Positions 1,093 to 8,235 of a DNA stretch of 64,000 bases are shown here, in pieces. The notes under the pieces were generated by a model, which was not told the DNA's origin, made no database searches, and saw only the letters and a program-made list of their open reading frames with translations. Source of the DNA: Patescibacteria group bacterium (GTDB lineage Bacteria > Patescibacteriota > Minisyncoccia > Phycocordibacterales > UBA12079); assembly GCA_034661035.1 (NCBI GenBank), contig JAYEKM010000008.1, positions 11,677 to 75,676 of the forward strand, read 5' to 3'. Position numbers and translations under genes: made by a program. Numbering within the stretch: the stretch's first letter is position 1; each line of letters begins with the position of its first letter.

Positions 1093-1329
1093 ATGATAAA
1101 TATAGAAGTAACTAAGAATAACAATGAGAACGACATGAGTATCATGCGTCGTTTTACTAAAAGAGTACGTAATGCAGGAATCCTTCCTAGAGTCCGTTCC
1201 ATTCGTTATAACAACAGAACTACATCAAAATATATAAAGAAGAAAGAAGCTCTAAAGAAAATTGAAAAGAGAGAGGAGATAAAAAAATTAATAAAATTGG
1301 GCAAAATGCCAGAAAACAGATTACGCTAA
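1093..1329 (+). CDS. rpsU: 30S ribosomal protein S21
   Basis: 78 aa; MINIEV..MRRFTKRVRNAGIL matches the S21 pattern (E. coli MPVIKV..LRRFKRSCEKAGVL); Lys/Arg-rich tail. Confidence 0.85.
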   Translation: MINIEVTKNNNENDMSIMRRFTKRVRNAGILPRVRSIRYNNRTTSKYIKKKEALKKIEKREEIKKLIKLGKMPENRLR

Positions 1330-1342
1330 CTAGAAATTAAAT

Positions 1343-1370
1343 AGGTGAGCTCTCAGCTCACCTATTTTTA
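1343..1370 (+). terminator. rho-independent terminator after rpsU
   Basis: AGGTGAGCT-CTC-AGCTCACCT hairpin followed by ATTTTTAT. Confidence 0.7.
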
Positions 1371-1388
1371 TGTATAAAGTAATTTCCC

Positions 1389-1760
1389 ATGGACATAAAA
1401 AATAATACAAGAAAAAATAATCCTTCGGTTCAATTCGACAAGATAAAAGAATCTGTCCTAGGTAAAAAATATGAACTTAGTTTAGTTTTTATTGGTGACA
1501 AATTATCTCTAAAATTAAATAAGAAATATCGTAAGATTAATAAGCCAACAAACATTTTAACCTTTCCTCTTTCCAAAAATGAAGGTGAAATCTTTATAAA
1601 CCTAGGGTTATCAAAAAAACAATCCATCAAATTTGGCAGAAAATATGACGATTTTATAGGTTTTCTGTTTATCCACGGTTTACTCCATTTGAAAGGTTAC
1701 GAACATAGTAGTAAAATGGAGGTAGAGGAAAAAAAAATACGGAGAAGATTTAATCTCTAA
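1389..1760 (+). CDS. ybeY: rRNA maturation endoribonuclease YbeY
   Basis: 123 aa with zinc-binding motif HGLLHLKGYEH near the C-terminus. Confidence 0.85.
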   Translation: MDIKNNTRKNNPSVQFDKIKESVLGKKYELSLVFIGDKLSLKLNKKYRKINKPTNILTFPLSKNEGEIFINLGLSKKQSIKFGRKYDDFIGFLFIHGLLHLKGYEHSSKMEVEEKKIRRRFNL

Positions 1761-1873
1761 TTTTTTATTCCTAAAAAGGATTCTATTAAAGACAAAAAAA
1801 TCTGTTTATCTTTTTTGTGTTTAATATTTTTATGAATTAAATTATTAACTTATCCTCTGTCTTTAAATTTATT

Positions 1874-3049
1874 GTGACAAGAAAAATAACCACAGGAATA
1901 GATATAGGAACTTACCAAATAAAAGTGGTTATTACTGAATTGGTAAAAGACAAAAATGGAAGAAGTTTCCCTCAAATTATTGGAAGAGGTTTATGCCGAT
2001 CAAGAGGTTTGAGAAATGGGTATATCATAAATAAAGGAGAAGTAACCGAAAGTATATTACAAGCGGTTAGCCAAGCAGAAGAAACAGCTAATGTAAGAAT
2101 TAAAAAAGCTATTATTTCCATAGGAGGAGAAGGGTTAGAAGGAATTCGGGCAAAAGGAACAACCGTCATAACAAGAGCTGACTCAGAAATCACACAACTT
2201 GATGTGGAAAATGCTATTAAAGAAAGCCAGGAAAACGCTCCCTTATTAAATAAAAAAATAATCCATATAGCCACCTATGGTTTTAGTATTGATAATAGAA
2301 AAGTTTTAGGTGACCCTGTTGGTATGAAAGGAGAAAAACTAAAAGTAGAATCCCTTTTTATCGTGTGTTTAGAACAACACTATAATAACCTCATCCAAAC
2401 AGTTGAGGATGCTCAGATAGAAGTTGAGGGAGATATTGTTGCTTCCCCTATTGCAGGTAGTTGTGTTACCTTAACCAAAACTCAAAAAATAGCTGGTTGT
2501 GTTTTAGCTGACATTGGAGCTGAAACAATATCTATCGTGGTATTTGAGAACAACCTTCCTATTTCACTAGAGACTTTCCCAATGGGGTCAACAAACATAA
2601 CCCACGATATAGCCCTTGGACTCAGAATCGATTTAAGTGAAGCTGAAAAGATAAAGCATGGAGTAATGACATCAACCATTTACTCACAAAGAGAACTAGA
2701 CGAAATCATAACAGCACGTCTTGAAGATATTTTTGTTCTAATAGAAAATCATTTAAAAAAAATAAATAGAAACGGTTTACTGCCAGCAGGTATTATAATT
2801 TCAGGAGGAGGCTCTGGAATGACAACTATAAACGAATTAGCAAAAGCTTCTCTTAATCTTCCTTCAAAGATTGCTAATCTATATTTTTTGAGTTCAAATC
2901 GTGACAGAATTCAAGACTCAACATGGGCAGTCGCCTGCGGACTCTGTTTGGCTGGTTCAACTATGGAAGAAGATTCCTTTTCTGTACCAAAATTAGCAAA
3001 AAACATAAAAGATCGAGGTAAAAAATGGATTAAACAATTCTTTGTATAG
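1874..3049 (+). CDS. ftsA: cell division protein FtsA
   Basis: GTG start; actin-like ATPase N-terminus TGIDIGTYQIKVV; directly upstream of ftsZ. Confidence 0.85.
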   Translation: MTRKITTGIDIGTYQIKVVITELVKDKNGRSFPQIIGRGLCRSRGLRNGYIINKGEVTESILQAVSQAEETANVRIKKAIISIGGEGLEGIRAKGTTVITRADSEITQLDVENAIKESQENAPLLNKKIIHIATYGFSIDNRKVLGDPVGMKGEKLKVESLFIVCLEQHYNNLIQTVEDAQIEVEGDIVASPIAGSCVTLTKTQKIAGCVLADIGAETISIVVFENNLPISLETFPMGSTNITHDIALGLRIDLSEAEKIKHGVMTSTIYSQRELDEIITARLEDIFVLIENHLKKINRNGLLPAGIIISGGGSGMTTINELAKASLNLPSKIANLYFLSSNRDRIQDSTWAVACGLCLAGSTMEEDSFSVPKLAKNIKDRGKKWIKQFFV

Positions 3050-3141
3050 TTCCAGTTTTTCTGATAATATTATAATATATTATAAATATAGGGTTTGATT
3101 TAAAGGTCAAAGATTAAATTATCAACAATAAAAGAAACAAT

Positions 3142-4344
3142 ATGCCAAAAATAAATACAGCTGTTGAAGCATTCGCTAGGATAAAGATCATCGGAGTTGG
3201 TGGCGCAGGAAAAAATGCTACAAACTATATGATTAAATCAAAAGTTCAAGGAGTTGAATTTGTTGTAATCAATACAGATGCTCAAGATTTACACCATTCC
3301 TTGGCAAAAAAGAAAATCCATATTGGCAAAAACCTTACCAGTGGTTTAGGAGCTGGTATGGACCCTGACTTGGGGAAAAGAGCTGCTGAAGAAACAGCTG
3401 AAGAAATTCAAGATATTCTAAAAGGTTCAAATATGGTTTTCCTTACTGCTGGATTTGGAGGAGGAACAGGAACGGGAGCTACTCCTATCGTTGCCAAAAT
3501 TGCCAAAGATTTAGGTATATTAACAGTAGCCGTTGTAACAAAACCATTTTCTTTTGAAGGAGCTAGGAGAACTGAGATTGCAAAACAAGGACTTGAAAAG
3601 CTAAAACAAGAGGTTGATGCTCTTATTATGATACCAAATGACCGTATCTTAAATGTTGCCCCAGAAGGAACCACTATGGAAGATGCTTTTGCAATGAGTG
3701 ATAGAATTTTAAAAGAAGCGGTTGAGGGTATTTCTGATCTAATTACCGTACCAGGTAGAATTAATGTTGACTTCGCTGATATCTTAGCTGTCATGAGTAA
3801 CGCCGGTTCAGCTCTTATGGGAATTGGAAAAGCTACTGGTGAAAAACGTGCCGAGGAAGCAGCAAGAGCTGCTATTAACTCACCTCTTCTTGATATTTCT
3901 ATTGATGGAGCTAAAGGTGTCTTACTATCAGTAGCAGGTGGTGATGACCTAACTATTAACGAAATCCAAGACGCTGCTAAGATTGTAACTGAATCAATTG
4001 ATACAGATGCAAAAGTTATCTTTGGAACCTCAAGGACTGATAAACTAAAGAAAGATGAAATTAAAGTAACTGTAATAGCAACGGGTTTTAAAGACCCTAC
4101 GGGAAATGGAAATAGACTTTTCCAAAGAAACATAAAGGATGAGAAGGATGAAGAGGTAAAAAAAGAAAGTAAAGGCGGTATCTTTGGGGGTTCATCAAAC
4201 AAAAAAGAGAAAGAGGAAGTAAAGGAAGTAAAGAAAGAGAAAAAGGAGGAACCTAAACCAAAACCTAATGTTATAATCCCTGAGGATGATGAAGATGATA
4301 CTTGGGATTCTATCCCCTCCTTTTTAAAGAGAACTAAAAAATAA
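3142..4344 (+). CDS. ftsZ: cell division GTPase FtsZ
   Basis: IGVGGAGKNA and tubulin signature GGGTGTGATP; KE-rich C-terminal linker. Confidence 0.95.
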   Translation: MPKINTAVEAFARIKIIGVGGAGKNATNYMIKSKVQGVEFVVINTDAQDLHHSLAKKKIHIGKNLTSGLGAGMDPDLGKRAAEETAEEIQDILKGSNMVFLTAGFGGGTGTGATPIVAKIAKDLGILTVAVVTKPFSFEGARRTEIAKQGLEKLKQEVDALIMIPNDRILNVAPEGTTMEDAFAMSDRILKEAVEGISDLITVPGRINVDFADILAVMSNAGSALMGIGKATGEKRAEEAARAAINSPLLDISIDGAKGVLLSVAGGDDLTINEIQDAAKIVTESIDTDAKVIFGTSRTDKLKKDEIKVTVIATGFKDPTGNGNRLFQRNIKDEKDEEVKKESKGGIFGGSSNKKEKEEVKEVKKEKKEEPKPKPNVIIPEDDEDDTWDSIPSFLKRTKK

Positions 4345-5305: not shown

Positions 5306-6001
5306 TTAAGTTTCCTTAGGCTCCTCTTTTTCTAATCTTTTATCTTCTTTTGTAACTATAGTTTCAATTACTTTTTTCTTTGTATGAAAATTCATTAGAG
5401 AAAATGTAACCATTCCAGCAAAGATTATACCGACAATGTTTAAACCAAATAAAATCAAAGCATTCGTCATCATTGTCCAACTCATTTCAGCCAAACCGAT
5501 GCCAATCAGAGCAATTGGAGGAATTAAAGCTACAGCAATAGCCACACCAGGTAAAGTCTCATTTAGTTTAGGTTTAATAAGAGCAAAGGTTGCCGCAAAT
5601 CCAGCTACTACTGACACAGCCACGTATAGGAGAGAAGGGTTTGAACTTACAACTAAATTCTCTGGTATTTTGCCAGCTCCAAAAATAAGAGTAGCTACAG
5701 CTGATACTCCTACACCGACAGTTAGCGATTTAACTATAGTTTGAATAGACCTTCTTATTAATTTTGAATCAGCAATAGTAATACCCAAAGATAAACTCAG
5801 TATAGGAGAAAGTAATGGAGCAATTAACATACTTCCAATTACAATAGCAACATTTCCTAATAAAACACCAAAAACAGCAGTTAAAACAGACAATGCCATC
5901 ATGAGAAAAAAGTCCTGACTGGGAGTACTTTGAGTTATTAATTTCTCAACAGCGTCAGCCTTATCCCTCTCTTCCAAACCATTAAATATAAATAATCTCA
6001 T
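5306..6001 (-). CDS. integral membrane protein (DUF389/TIGR00341-like guess)
   Basis: 231 aa with about 6 hydrophobic helices; the family assignment is from memory only. Confidence 0.35.
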   Translation of the reverse strand: MRLFIFNGLEERDKADAVEKLITQSTPSQDFFLMMALSVLTAVFGVLLGNVAIVIGSMLIAPLLSPILSLSLGITIADSKLIRRSIQTIVKSLTVGVGVSAVATLIFGAGKIPENLVVSSNPSLLYVAVSVVAGFAATFALIKPKLNETLPGVAIAVALIPPIALIGIGLAEMSWTMMTNALILFGLNIVGIIFAGMVTFSLMNFHTKKKVIETIVTKEDKRLEKEEPKET

Positions 6002-6180
6002 ATAAACAACATTATAACTTATCTTAAGAACTGCGCAAATTTTTTACTCGGAATACAAGATTAGGTCACTCTCATGGATATTTATTTCCCCACCCAATGT
6101 GGGTCATAAATATCTCATTCCCTTGACCTCCACTCGGCTGTTCCGACTTCGCTTTGCTTCGTCGGGCTTCGCACAGCCTT

Positions 6181-6321
<141 letters not shown>

Positions 6322-6370
6322 AAATATTTTTTACTCAATACTGTGTATATAATTTTTAACTCATCATAAG

Positions 6371-6434
6371 TTCTACCAATCCCGACGATTCTGTCGGGAC
6401 CCCGACGCCGTCGAGGCTGAGCTAACCGTCCCCT
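6371..6434 (-). pseudogene. tRNA-Val 5' fragment interrupted by a 37-nt GC-rich hairpin insert (pseudo-tRNA)
   Basis: The minus strand reads GGGGACGGTTAGCTCAG-[CCTCGACGGCGTCGGGGTCCCGACAGAATCGTCGGGA]-TTGGTAGA and then diverges. No anticodon or T arm follows. Confidence 0.45.
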
Positions 6435-6474
6435 TATTTTTTAATTATATACTATTTGAGAGTTTAGTTACAAA

Positions 6475-6549
6475 TGGTGACCCTACCGGGAATCGAACCC
6501 GGATTACCAGCTTGAAAAGCTGATGTCCTAACCATTAGACGATAGGGCC
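6475..6549 (-). tRNA. tRNA-Glu (anticodon TTC), CCA encoded
   Basis: GGCCCTATCGTCTAATGGTTAGGAC-A-TCAGC-TTTTCAA-GCTGG..CCGGGTTCGATTCCCGG-TAGGGTC-ACCA. Confidence 0.85.
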
Positions 6550-6619
6550 TTATAATTAGGAATATTATACTAATTTTTGTCAAAAAAGCAAAAAAATGTT
6601 AGATTATCCTTAGTATATT

Positions 6620-6699
6620 GGAGGTGTGGCTGAGTGGACGAAAAGCAAACTGCTTTGCTTTTCATCTGAACAAAGTGAAGTGGCAAACACTCAGCCACA
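6620..6699 (+). other. duplicated tRNA-Ser 5' 20-22-mer fused to a long hairpin (pseudo-tRNA or structured element)
   Basis: tattGGAGGTGTGGCTGAGTGG is repeated exactly at 6742. Here TGTGGCTGAGTG pairs with CACTCAGCCACA about 50 nt downstream, there is no T arm, and a T-rich tract follows. Confidence 0.4.
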
Positions 6700-6745
6700 T
6701 ATTTCTGAAACATTTTTTGTTTTGGACGACAATACAAAGTTTATT

Positions 6746-6832
6746 GGAGGTGTGGCTGAGTGGTTGAAGGCACCGCTTTCGAAAAGCGGCATGCGGGAAA
6801 CCGTATCAGGGGTTCGAATCCTCTCGCCTCCG
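6746..6832 (+). tRNA. tRNA-Ser (anticodon CGA), type II with long variable arm
   Basis: GGAGGTG..CCGCT-TTCGAAA-AGCGG-CATGCGGGAAACCGTATC-AGGGGTTCGAATCCTCT-CGCCTCC-G. Confidence 0.85.
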
Positions 6833-6869
6833 CACAAAAAAAGAGTCTAAATTATAATATTCAACTAGC

Positions 6870-6898
6870 TTGACAAGTACAAGTTAGTACTGTTAAAT
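6870..6898 (+). promoter_or_regulatory. sigma70-like promoter (TTGACA-17-TTAAAT)
   Basis: cTTGACAagtacaagttagtactgTTAAATat; the spacer is partly palindromic (AGTAC..GTACT). Confidence 0.45.
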
Positions 6899-6904
6899 AT
6901 AGTT

Positions 6905-7105
6905 ATATGCAATATTTGCACCAAAAGCTGAATAAAAACATCACAGCAAACACAGCTTTGCTTGGTTTTCCTATGTCTGTCCACACAAAGAAAACCAATA
7001 AATTTTTATTCAGCCGCGGTAATTCTATCTCTCCACCTAGATTTTAAACAAGAAAACTAGAACCTAGAAATCCCTCTGCTGAATAAAAGCAGAGGGTTTT
7101 TATTT
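6905..7105 (+). ncRNA. candidate structured leader (riboswitch/attenuator) or sRNA upstream of the GNAT gene
   Basis: Runs from the promoter to an intrinsic terminator. GCTGAATAAAA occurs at 6927 and in the terminator (7078), and its complement sits at 7003, allowing alternative pairing. Confidence 0.35.
7072..7105 (+). terminator. rho-independent terminator
   Basis: CCCTCTGCT-GAATAAA-AGCAGAGGG followed by TTTTTATTT. Confidence 0.75.
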
Positions 7106-7146
7106 AGCAAAAATTATTGTTCTTTAAAAAAGAAAGGAGAAAAATC

Positions 7147-7740
7147 ATGTCCGAACAAAAAAGCCAACCTATCGTTTTCCTAAAAAGTAATCGTGTCATT
7201 CTTCGCCCAGTATTAAAAGAGGATATTCCCTCTCTAACAAAGTGGGTCAATGACCCTGAAATTTTACCTTTCCTTGGCAGGTATCTGCCTGTCATGGAAG
7301 CAGACGAGGAAGAGTGGTTCAATAACCTCCACAAAAGAAAGCCTAACCATATTGTTCTCGCAATTATTGCTGACGAAAAAATAATTGGTACAATGGGTCT
7401 TCACAGGATCAGTATGAAGGATCGAGTAGCTACAACAGGAGCTCTTATTGGAGAAAAAGATTATTGGGGAAAAGGTTATGGAAGCGAGGCAAAAATGATT
7501 TTGTTAGACTATGCCTTTAACACCCTCAACCTACGCAAAATATGTTCTTTTGTTATAGCCTTCAACGAACGAAGTTATAAATATAGCCTAAAATGTGGTT
7601 ATAAGGAAGAAGGTAGACAAAGAAAACATATTTACAGATTCGGAAAATATTGGGACCAAATTTTTCTTGCTGTCTTTAAAGAGGACTGGTTACCTCTTTG
7701 GAAAGAATTTTCCAAAGAACACAATATCACCAACCTCTAA
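7147..7740 (+). CDS. GNAT family N-acetyltransferase (RimJ/RimL-like)
   Basis: AGGAG 7 nt upstream of ATG 7147. Acetyl-CoA-binding-like region IGTMGLHRI..GEKDYWGKGYGSEA. Confidence 0.75.
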   Translation: MSEQKSQPIVFLKSNRVILRPVLKEDIPSLTKWVNDPEILPFLGRYLPVMEADEEEWFNNLHKRKPNHIVLAIIADEKIIGTMGLHRISMKDRVATTGALIGEKDYWGKGYGSEAKMILLDYAFNTLNLRKICSFVIAFNERSYKYSLKCGYKEEGRQRKHIYRFGKYWDQIFLAVFKEDWLPLWKEFSKEHNITNL

Positions 7741-7746
7741 AAACAG

Positions 7747-7783
7747 AATGGGTTTTTGCTGTAAAGCAAAAACCCATTTTTTA
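7747..7783 (+). terminator. rho-independent terminator
   Basis: AATGGGTTTTTGCT-GTAA-AGCAAAAACCCATT followed by TTTTTATT. Confidence 0.75.
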
Positions 7784-7824
7784 TTCACATAGATATCTCT
7801 TATTTTTTATGATAAATTAAACTA

Positions 7825-8235
7825 ATGAAAATATTTATAATTTCTAGCAAGAATTTTTACGAAAAAATTCCTGAAATAAAAGAACAGTTGGAAAAAAATG
7901 GAAATATTATTTCTTTACCTAATTGTTTTGATGCCCCTGAAACTGAAGCCAAATATAGGGATTTAGGAAAAAAAGAACACTCTAAGTGGAAATCTGAGAT
8001 GATTTGTCATAGTGTAGATGTAATCAAGGATAATAATGCCGTCTTAGTCTTAAATTTAGAAAAAAATGGTATTAAAAATTACATCGGAGGAGCTACATTT
8101 CTCGAAATGTATGATGCTTTCCGCCTTGGTAAAAAAATATTTCTATATAATCCTGTCCCCGAAGGGATGCTATATGATGAGATAATTGGTTTTAATCCAA
8201 TTGTTATAAACCAAGATTTAAATTTAATTAAATGA
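7825..8235 (+). CDS. hypothetical protein (possibly nucleoside 2-deoxyribosyltransferase-like Rossmann fold)
   Basis: 136 aa; stop overlaps the tsaD start by 4 nt; the fold guess is weak. Confidence 0.4.
   Translation: MKIFIISSKNFYEKIPEIKEQLEKNGNIISLPNCFDAPETEAKYRDLGKKEHSKWKSEMICHSVDVIKDNNAVLVLNLEKNGIKNYIGGATFLEMYDAFRLGKKIFLYNPVPEGMLYDEIIGFNPIVINQDLNLIK

Follow-up and report, generated by a model that had tools for sequence, protein, structure and literature searches.

A conserved transcription attenuator was identified between a tRNA-Ser(CGA) gene and a gene for a GNAT N-acetyltransferase in a 64,000-nt stretch of DNA (the window, by which we mean the whole stretch analysed) from a low-GC genome of the Patescibacteria (Candidate Phyla Radiation, CPR). 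The element starts from a sigma-70-type promoter at a fixed spacing, carries a short open reading frame (ORF) whose frame is kept open in relatives, and folds through three covarying helices, a system that the ORF overlaps; it is linked to the GNAT gene. As judged from the substitutions among relatives, the logic of terminator, antiterminator and anti-antiterminator is real and the element is a transcription attenuator. We think that it is probably a ribosome-dependent attenuator of the trp/his type, acting on a leaderless leader ORF and controlling a SpeG/RimJ-like GNAT, and that the switch most likely reads the progress of a ribosome rather than the binding of a metabolite. The parts of the element and its neighbours, in coordinates of the window, are as follows (SD, Shine–Dalgarno sequence).

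6746–6833: tRNA-Ser(CGA) gene, upstream neighbour of the promoter and leader.
6870–6898, plus strand: sigma-70-type promoter (TTGACA 6870–6875, 17-nt spacer, TTAAAT 6893–6898).
6907–7047, plus strand: leader ORF, 46 codons and TAA (MQYLHQKLNKNITANTALLGFPMSVHTKKTNKFLFSRGNSISPPRF), its ATG 8 nt after the −10 box.
6908–6920, plus strand: weak 5′-terminal hairpin UGCAA/UUGCA over the start codon (−2.7 kcal/mol in the window).
6927–6938, plus strand: strand A (region 1), GCUGAAUAAAAA, leader codons 7–11; pairs with strand B and acts as anti-antiterminator.
7003–7020, plus strand: strand B with its extension (region 2), UUUUUAUUCAGCCGCGGU, codons 33–38 (F-L-F-S-R-G); 7003–7014 pairs with strand A.
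7065–7101, plus strand: intrinsic terminator (regions 3 and 4), with A-tract 7065–7070, stem 7072–7080/7088–7096, loop 7081–7087 and U-tract 7097–7101.
7078–7108, plus strand: helix C:D, joining the upper terminator stem and loop (7078–7089) to the U-tract and the next 7 nt (7097–7108).
7119–7139, plus strand: GUUCUUU (7119–7125) and SD AAAGGAG (7133–7139), conserved in relatives.
7147–7740, plus strand: GNAT N-acetyltransferase, 197 aa (Pfam Acetyltransf_3, E = 2e-24), RimJ/RimL- and SpeG-like.

An earlier annotation of the window made from the letters alone (the sequence-only reading) had proposed a promoter of the form TTGACA-17-TTAAAT at 6870–6898. This promoter is present in the sequence, and a consensus scan of the window, which listed the terminator, missed it because its −10 box has no A at position 2. 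The spacing in relatives supports it: a TTGACA-like −35 box (at least five of six positions) lies 34–38 nt before the leader ATG in 48 of 72 family loci, matching at all six positions in 34 of these and at five in 14. The leader of about 200 nt ending in a clean terminator ahead of the SD and ATG of the GNAT gene (ATG at 7147), which the same annotation described, was confirmed, the terminator consisting of a 9-bp GC-rich stem (CCCTCTGCT/AGCAGAGGG) with a 7-nt loop (GAATAAA), followed by TTTTTATTT, and having a predicted stability of −16.3 kcal/mol. Also confirmed was the occurrence of one segment twice with its complement in between: GCTGAATAAAA stands exactly at 6927 and 7078, and its exact complement at 7004–7014. 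That reading had overlooked a fourth copy at 7098–7108, which is complementary to the word but for one mismatch. At up to one mismatch, about 4.7 copies of this word would be expected in the 64-kb window on both strands and only 4 others were found elsewhere; the presence of four copies inside 182 nt is therefore clustering far beyond chance. The leader RNA (6905–7105, 201 nt) folds with a z-score of −6.1 relative to shuffled sequences, and in its minimum-free-energy (MFE) fold a perfect 12-bp helix closes a three-way junction, after which comes the terminator. The minus strand of the leader folds equally well; an element on that strand was rejected, since neither a promoter nor an ORF signal is present there and matches of the family model to it are palindrome echoes.

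To compare the leader with its relatives, 80 loci encoding GNAT orthologues of 45–65% identity were fetched, one genome per species, giving 81 upstream regions with that of the window; the loci were thus chosen by their GNAT orthologue. With the window leader as a single query, nhmmer matched a collinear upstream region in about 25 of the 80 loci, and an iterated hidden Markov model (HMM) of the leader had matches in 53 of the 81 regions, all of them immediately ahead of the GNAT gene, which confirmed the presence of the leader ahead of GNAT orthologues. The records concerned are labelled Paceibacterota, Jorgensen-, Campbell-, Azam-, Komeili-, Nomura-, Taylor-, Zambryskii-, Vogel- and Staskawiczbacteria, Microgenomatus and ‘Saccharibacteria’. 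Most loci outside the 53 matches have the same layout in diverged sequence. When the regions were tested independently of sequence similarity, a hairpin followed by a U-run was found in 72 of the 81, while the best upstream partner of the 5′ half of the terminator reached z ≤ −2 in 52 and fell inside a small ORF in 67; this test also covers diverged subfamilies with quite different strand sequences, for example GGGGCGGUC/ACCGCCC and UUGGGACAAU/AUUGCCUCAGC. Conservation is unusually high for the repeated word and for UUCAGCCGUGGU/CCUCGGCUGAA despite divergence of the GNAT proteins to as little as about 50% identity, and the best-conserved nucleotides are those of the switching strands, not of junctions or loops.

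In every case seen the element heads a GNAT-containing transcription unit. In one match additional to the 53, in a metagenome-assembled genome (MAG) of Harrisonbacteria (locus L012), the leader (TTGACA at 1134, ATG at 1170, terminator at about 1303–1335) heads a unit of three genes (1134–3082) encoding a 140-aa His_Phos_1 phosphatase, a 224-aa protein of unknown function and the GNAT. A leader ORF that was found without GNAT as bait (P0122) also precedes a GNAT gene: a profile of 20 leader peptides had 2 matches among 5.8 billion protein clusters, and this one stands immediately ahead of a GNAT gene with identical Pfam families; the second match, too, appears to precede a member of this GNAT family. 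A search of metagenomes with the pattern AGCCGNGRTN{38,66}CTCGGCTGRA gave at least 120 stretches, and among the matches listed none had a match to the leader HMM or a GNAT gene, so these are taken as chance matches. High-GC versions of the leader were seen upstream of GNAT in two MAGs labelled Gammaproteobacteria (L049 and L060).

The pairing of the leader strands was assessed in an alignment of the 53 matched sequences (A3), with 500 shuffles and slid helices as controls.

Terminator, 7072–7080/7088–7096 with its A/U extension: 86.6% of cells paired; 68 both-side changes (shuffle mean 15.7); best slid control 24.
Antiterminator, 7009–7020/7072–7083: 83.8% of cells paired; 81 both-side changes (shuffle mean 25); best slid control 16.
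C:D, 7078–7085/7101–7108: 78.6% of cells paired; 25 both-side changes (shuffle mean 10); best slid control 21.

All three helices surpassed all 500 shuffles in percentage paired, both-side changes and covariation score, and exceeded all slid controls. In an unbiased scan of all column pairs the top signals were exactly the terminator, the antiterminator and C:D, with the antiterminator first; all lower-ranking signals were low-complexity ones in which the U-tract, or UUCUUU, pairs with the SD. Compensation in the antiterminator is exemplified by GGU/ACC changing to GAU/AUC and by AGCCGUGG/CCUCGGCU changing to GCCACGG/CCGUGGC, and that in C:D by the variants GCUGAAC/GUUCAGC, GCUCCAU/AUGGAGC and GCUUUAC/GUAAAGC. 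The terminator/antiterminator switch suggested by the sequence-only reading is thus backed by compensatory changes in 53 leaders. Its proposal that the middle segment can pair with either copy of the repeated word holds in outline, with the amendment that the conserved antiterminator is 7009–7020/7072–7083 and reaches beyond the 11-mer. In this helix the extension of strand B (7009–7020) pairs with the 5′ half of the terminator, so that antiterminator and terminator are mutually exclusive. In many relatives the antiterminator is at least as stable as the terminator (for example −18.4 versus −18.0 and −17.9 versus −11.2 kcal/mol).

The pairing of strand A with strand B was conserved less uniformly. 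In the window, strand A (6927–6938) is a perfect 12-bp complement of 7003–7014; across the 53 leaders the paired share of cells is 71.6%, and in 6 of 10 pairs both partners have changed. Cognate A:B duplexes have a mean predicted energy of −9.14 kcal/mol, compared with −6.77 kcal/mol for swapped ones (permutation p ~2e-4), and the best partner of strand B in the 5′ part starts at transcript nt 16–25 in about 20–25 of the 53 leaders.

Judged by long ORFs, the interval 6870–7146 is the non-coding gap between tRNA and GNAT that the sequence-only reading had described, yet it contains the 46-codon ORF at 6907–7047. In an alignment built on nucleotide similarity alone, 33 of 53 leaders have the ATG of this ORF in a common column. 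Of these 33, 32 are free of stops in frame 0 to the end of the antiterminator strand, compared with 3 in frame +1 and 10 in frame +2 (mean stop counts 0.03 versus 1.67 and 1.58). The phase between the AUG and a conserved AGC is kept in 17 of 20 leaders, over distances of 72–105 nt that change in steps of three. ORF length varies from about 25 to 46 aa across relatives, and the stop codon ends 7–28 nt past the antiterminator strand, with about 20–30 nt then remaining to the terminator stem. From the −35 spacing of 34–38 nt, the ATG in relatives would lie 5–9 nt after the −10 box; this distance leaves no room for an SD or a 5′ untranslated region, which points to a leaderless mRNA, and the 5′ end of the window transcript should fall at or within 1–3 nt of AUG 6907.

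Constraint on the peptide itself is weak. Entropy is nearly flat over the three codon positions (1.46/1.49/1.58) and the amino-acid composition is near that of random codons of equal base content, as expected for a regulatory leader ORF. Two peptide motifs recur, Q-(L/M)-N at codons 7–9 and (L/V)-F-S-R-(G/D) near the C-terminus, and these coincide with RNA strands A and B; moreover, the alternation of G and D in FSR(G/D) is compensated in the 5′ half of the terminator. The first 15 codons are G-poor and A/C-rich, Asn making up 14.4% there against 4.4% later and Gly 1.7% against 7.4%, and the enrichment of Asn, Gln, His and Thr in codons 2–15 reflects this G-poor 5′ end. In our reading, an unstructured 5′ end has been selected for. 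Leaderless translation is favoured by a CA-rich sequence after the start codon. Sensing of Asn or Gln codons, considered because of Q-x-N and the 14% Asn, was set aside as unproven, the 5′ part being G-poor and the motif overlapping strand A. In the two high-GC variants (ORFs beginning MSQLNL... and MHHQNL...), Q and N are kept by the synonymous codons CAG and AAC, a hint that the codons or residues of the N-terminal Q-x-N may themselves be of importance.

A conserved, frame-preserving ORF at the 5′ end of the transcript makes a translating ribosome the more probable sensor, and we infer both how ribosome position would set the outcome and what kind of signal is read. In the proposed mechanism, transcription would begin at or near ATG 6907, and a 70S ribosome would translate the 46-codon ORF while RNA polymerase heads for the terminator. 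Four strands would compete: 1 (6927–6938, codons 7–11), 2 (7003–7020, codons 33–38), 3 (7072–7083, the 5′ half of the terminator and the start of its loop) and 4 (7088–7096, the 3′ half of the terminator). With no ribosome on the ORF, 1:2 would form first and 3:4 would then terminate transcription at the U-tract near 7101, leaving GNAT off. A ribosome that has run to the stop codon (7045) would either free strands 1 and 2 behind it to re-pair or cover the 3′ end of strand 2, and termination would again follow; from the stop distances and a footprint of about 15–18 nt upstream of the A site, we estimate that in about 24 of 32 leaders the terminating ribosome extends over the end of strand 2 on its 3′ side. 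If the ribosome were instead held early, on or near strand 1, strand 2 would be free to pair with strand 3, no terminator would form and GNAT mRNA would be made. Early hold-up leading to antitermination means that such a switch would report slow or stalled translation, for which a translation inhibitor, a shortage of aminoacyl-tRNA or polyamines are candidate triggers. By analogy with bmrCD, yxjB and mef/mel, we speculate that the leader may be a read-out of translation stress that induces a detoxifying acetyltransferase. In a variant of this mechanism, translation itself, not stalling, would promote read-through, and GNAT expression would be tied to the efficiency of leaderless initiation.

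Several observations weigh against this account. That the ORF is translated, and that this organism initiates on it in leaderless fashion, are things we infer from sequence, and no promoter stands at leaderless distance from any of the 56 long ORFs of the window, so such a mode of starting would be unusual for this genome. The leader ORFs have no regulatory run of codons for any one amino acid after correction for composition, and the element is therefore not a classical amino-acid starvation attenuator; a codon run is the hallmark of the amino-acid subclass of attenuators, not of the drug- or stress-responsive one. Conservation of the A:B (strand 1:2) pairing appears moderate (71.6% paired). 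In the window, the antiterminator is mismatched and, at −10.4 kcal/mol, weaker than the terminator (−16.3 kcal/mol) and than the antiterminators of relatives. Small hairpins internal to the ORF partly covary, with 59.6% of cells paired (hand-drawn helices in a part where the alignment is imperfect), and could belong to an aptamer. The 5′-terminal hairpin is predicted in 23 of 33 relatives, always weak (−0.2 to −4.9 kcal/mol; 58% of cells paired), and by lying over the AUG in about two-thirds of leaders it could hinder initiation. Finally, helix C:D and the GUUCUUU element have no role in the ribosome model.

Among the rival explanations, that of a metabolite riboswitch would have A:B (6927–6938/7003–7014) close a three-way-junction aptamer with hairpins at 6945–6962 and 6963–6997; a ligand would stabilise A:B and switch the gene off, and the ORF would be incidental or secondary. 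The window fold, with its three-way junction, perfect 12-bp helix, terminator and z of −6.1, speaks for it, the A:B strands co-evolve, one small internal hairpin has both-side changes in 5 of 6 pairs, and a terminator/antiterminator pair is the typical architecture of a riboswitch expression platform. We nevertheless regard a riboswitch, one of the suggestions of the sequence-only reading, as unlikely. A search of the window with Rfam models (cmscan, E ≤ 10, 5900–7900) gave only noise in 6870–7146, and 20 relatives searched at the gathering threshold yielded only tRNAs and no leader family; RNAalifold predicted no consensus pairs in the variable, imperfectly aligned ORF/aptamer region of 25 leaders, and the internal helices reach only 58–60% paired. 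Conservation is concentrated on the switching strands rather than on a ligand pocket, opposite to the pattern in known riboswitches, and a segment that behaves as a conserved ORF (open frame in 32 of 33 leaders, insertions and deletions in threes, ATG fixed at the transcription start) would be left unexplained. A T-box, considered for the resemblance of GUGGUA to the T-box UGGN, was dropped: neither the window nor the 20 relatives matched RF00230, and GUGGU (7016–7020) takes part in antiterminator pairing and is variable (GAU, GGC).

Recognition of the four GCUGAA(U/C)A / U(A/G)UUCAGC copies by a trans-acting factor of the TRAP, PyrR or BglG/LicT type, which would decide between terminator and antiterminator, is quite unlikely in our estimate. 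In its favour, the repeated word and UUCAGCCGUGGU/CCUCGGCUGAA are very highly conserved, four word copies stand in 182 nt, and C:D and GUUCUUU lack a role in the ribosome model; diverged subfamilies, however, retain the architecture with entirely different strand sequences, so what is conserved is the pairing and not a binding word. The stacked constraints of coding and three overlapping helices can themselves explain high conservation, the element has no candidate regulator among its linked genes, neighbourhoods varying among loci, and the ORF signal is again left without explanation. The ORF could alternatively encode a functional micro-protein, such as a partner or substrate of the GNAT, in a two-gene unit whose hairpin is a leaky terminator or stabiliser that does not switch. 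That the ORF is conserved and always GNAT-linked, that Q(L/M)N and (L/V)FSR(G/D) recur and that the high-GC variants use synonymous codons would fit such a unit. It is improbable given the weak amino-acid constraint (flat codon-position entropy, near-random composition), the coincidence of the motifs with RNA strands, the compensation of the G/D change in RNA and the variation in length from about 25 to 46 aa, and a covarying antiterminator over the 3′ part of the ORF would be purposeless in a passive unit. An independent, trans-acting small RNA (sRNA), also raised by the sequence-only reading, would be the terminated transcript of about 195 nt (6907 to about 7101) acting on other mRNAs, for which the element's own promoter and strong terminator and the attenuator-derived sRNA rnTrpL (PMC7968998) offer a basis. 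We consider this highly improbable: the element always stands head-to-tail before a GNAT-containing unit with a conserved SD region after it, there is one copy only in the window, no conserved single-stranded seed was seen, and the antiterminator and C:D are meaningful only if read-through matters. A micro-protein or sRNA role could coexist with attenuation, and neither accounts for the covarying antiterminator.

The gene downstream of the ribosome-dependent attenuator that we favour is named ‘GNAT family protein’ by NCBI for the exact protein. Among solved structures, this protein comes closest to SpeG/diamine and ribosomal-protein acetyltransferases (E 1e-12 to 1e-9), and its NCBIfam matches (PseH, SpeG, the IleRS-fused GNAT domain and AAC(6′)) are weak and all below cut-offs. 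One homologue, a 271-aa ‘GNAT’ (P0003), has an N-terminus about 75 residues longer than all others, probably through a gene call extended upstream into the leader region.

The GNAT gene carries the only strong SD among about 50 long ORFs of the window. These long ORFs (for example at 3142, 8232, 9697 and 33609) have almost no SD and are A/U-rich upstream (...aaataaat ATG), and the organism seems to initiate mostly without one. GUUCUUU sits 7–15 nt before the SD in the family and, with UUCUUU:AAGGAG paired in 81% of cells in a stretch of low-complexity sequence, could possibly pair with the SD and mask it. Helix C:D can form in read-through RNA only, being incompatible with the terminator and with the full antiterminator; it is compatible with A:B and the 3′ half of the antiterminator, which would give three stacked helices, and one relative has it in its MFE fold. 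As the first GNAT codons are not conserved, the idea that strand D pairs around the GNAT start was dropped. Extra stable hairpins were seen between strand D and GUUCUUU at about 2443–2482 in L048 and at the equivalent sites in L079 and L034, so that strand D and GUUCUUU need not adjoin. Taken together, C:D, GUUCUUU and the lone strong SD hint at a second, translational layer of control. A far-reaching and rather doubtful extension of these ideas is that the element is an inducible protection module found across the CPR, in which the nascent peptide or the early codons of the leader ORF would cause the ribosome to stall upon one specific insult and the GNAT would acetylate and neutralise that very compound, candidates being a translation inhibitor from a host or competitor, an inhibitor of an aminoacyl-tRNA synthetase, or excess polyamine. 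C:D and GUUCUUU/SD would then form a second, translational checkpoint by which only genuinely antiterminated transcripts would be translated.

Downstream, the GNAT transcription unit appears to end at a hairpin that is followed by further features, and several tRNA-related sequences lie upstream of the tRNA-Ser gene.

7747–7785 (hairpin 7747–7778), inverted repeat I4: terminator-like hairpin of 14 bp with T-runs on both strands, which looks like a bidirectional terminator ending the GNAT unit.
7784–7813: promoter-like site (TTCACA, 18 nt, TATGAT) ahead of a 136-aa ORF (7825–8235) that had no Pfam or NCBIfam match.
6181–6200: perfect 20-nt inverted copy of the T-arm/acceptor 3′ part of tRNA-Val(GAC) (6248–6321, minus strand).
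6205–6248: terminator-like hairpin between the tRNA-Val(GAC) gene and this inverted 20-nt copy.
6417–6443, minus strand: 27-nt copy, 85% identical, of the tRNA-Val 5′ end and its upstream flank (6307–6333), followed by a GC-rich segment (6360–6443, minus strand).
6577–6605: promoter-like site (TTGTCA, 17 nt, TAGATT), followed at 6612–6642 by a 31-nt copy, 90% identical, of the tRNA-Ser 5′ end, within a long hairpin with a perfect 12-bp inverted repeat (6625–6636/6688–6699).

The inverted tRNA-Val copy could be a tRNA-fragment duplication of the integrative-element type. The segment 6360–6443, which received no tRNA call from ARAGORN or Rfam, may be a pseudo-tRNA or an unusual tRNA-like gene, and 6577–6700, likewise with no tRNA call, could be an uncharacterised sRNA or a tRNA remnant.

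Patescibacteria are tiny, mostly uncultured, often episymbiotic and have few transcription factors, and to our knowledge almost nothing is known of their gene regulation. A cis-acting switch that has been kept while the GNAT diverged to about 45–65% identity, from Paceibacteria to Microgenomatia, points to a condition that these cells must sense, and its conservation marks the GNAT as physiologically important. If the proposed mechanism is true, the element would be direct evidence for leaderless translation and for transcription–translation coupling in the CPR. The near-absence of the leader ORFs from protein databases suggests that regulators of this kind are missed by gene calling, and the element is small enough for heterologous or cell-free testing.

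No description of the element was found in Rfam or in the searchable literature (full text, for Patescibacteria/CPR, leader peptides, GNAT and attenuation), and as far as we could find there is no documented case of an intrinsic terminator and antiterminator being combined with a leader ORF that is leaderless. Structurally, the element has what characterises leader-peptide attenuators: a terminator, a mutually exclusive antiterminator, a sequestering strand 1 (with moderate support) and an overlapping conserved ORF. As in the classical examples trpL, hisL and pheL (PMC3082878), strands 1:2, 2:3 and 3:4 compete, 3:4 is the intrinsic terminator, and a short ORF lies over strand 1 with its stop at or just past strand 2, so that ribosome position would decide the outcome. 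Unlike in those systems, the ORF here has no SD, starts from the transcript 5′ end, is longer (about 25–46 codons), contains strand 2 and has no cognate codon run; moreover, the regulated gene is a GNAT and not a biosynthetic operon, and an extra helix, C:D, follows downstream of the terminator.

A second comparison is with the antibiotic-responsive attenuators of Bacillus subtilis bmrB-bmrCD (PMC4191407), of yxjB, which responds to tylosin (PMC6851288), and of mef/mel (PMC4335068). In these, too, a short leader ORF without a regulatory codon run precedes a terminator/antiterminator and stalling induces a protective gene, which would make both kinds of leader read-outs of translation stress; their ORFs, however, are SD-dependent and have known inducing drugs, whereas that described here is putatively leaderless. 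The mycobacterial leaderless polycysteine short ORFs of the ‘Cys ribulon’ (bioRxiv 10.1101/834739) are reported to act on translation by unmasking a ribosome-binding site and to carry a tract of Cys codons. They share with the present element an unannotated, leaderless first cistron (here by promoter geometry) at which pausing remodels, or would remodel, the downstream RNA and so control the operon, and differ from it in that the present leader has a covarying terminator and antiterminator and no Cys tract. In translation attenuation of the erm/cat type, for example ermBL (PMC8274638), the accessibility of the SD is controlled and the arrest peptides have 8–19 residues. There, as proposed here, the translation state of a leader peptide switches alternative hairpins upstream of a modifying enzyme, whereas in the patescibacterial leader it is termination that would be controlled, and the peptide is poorly conserved except for the motifs that lie on the RNA strands.

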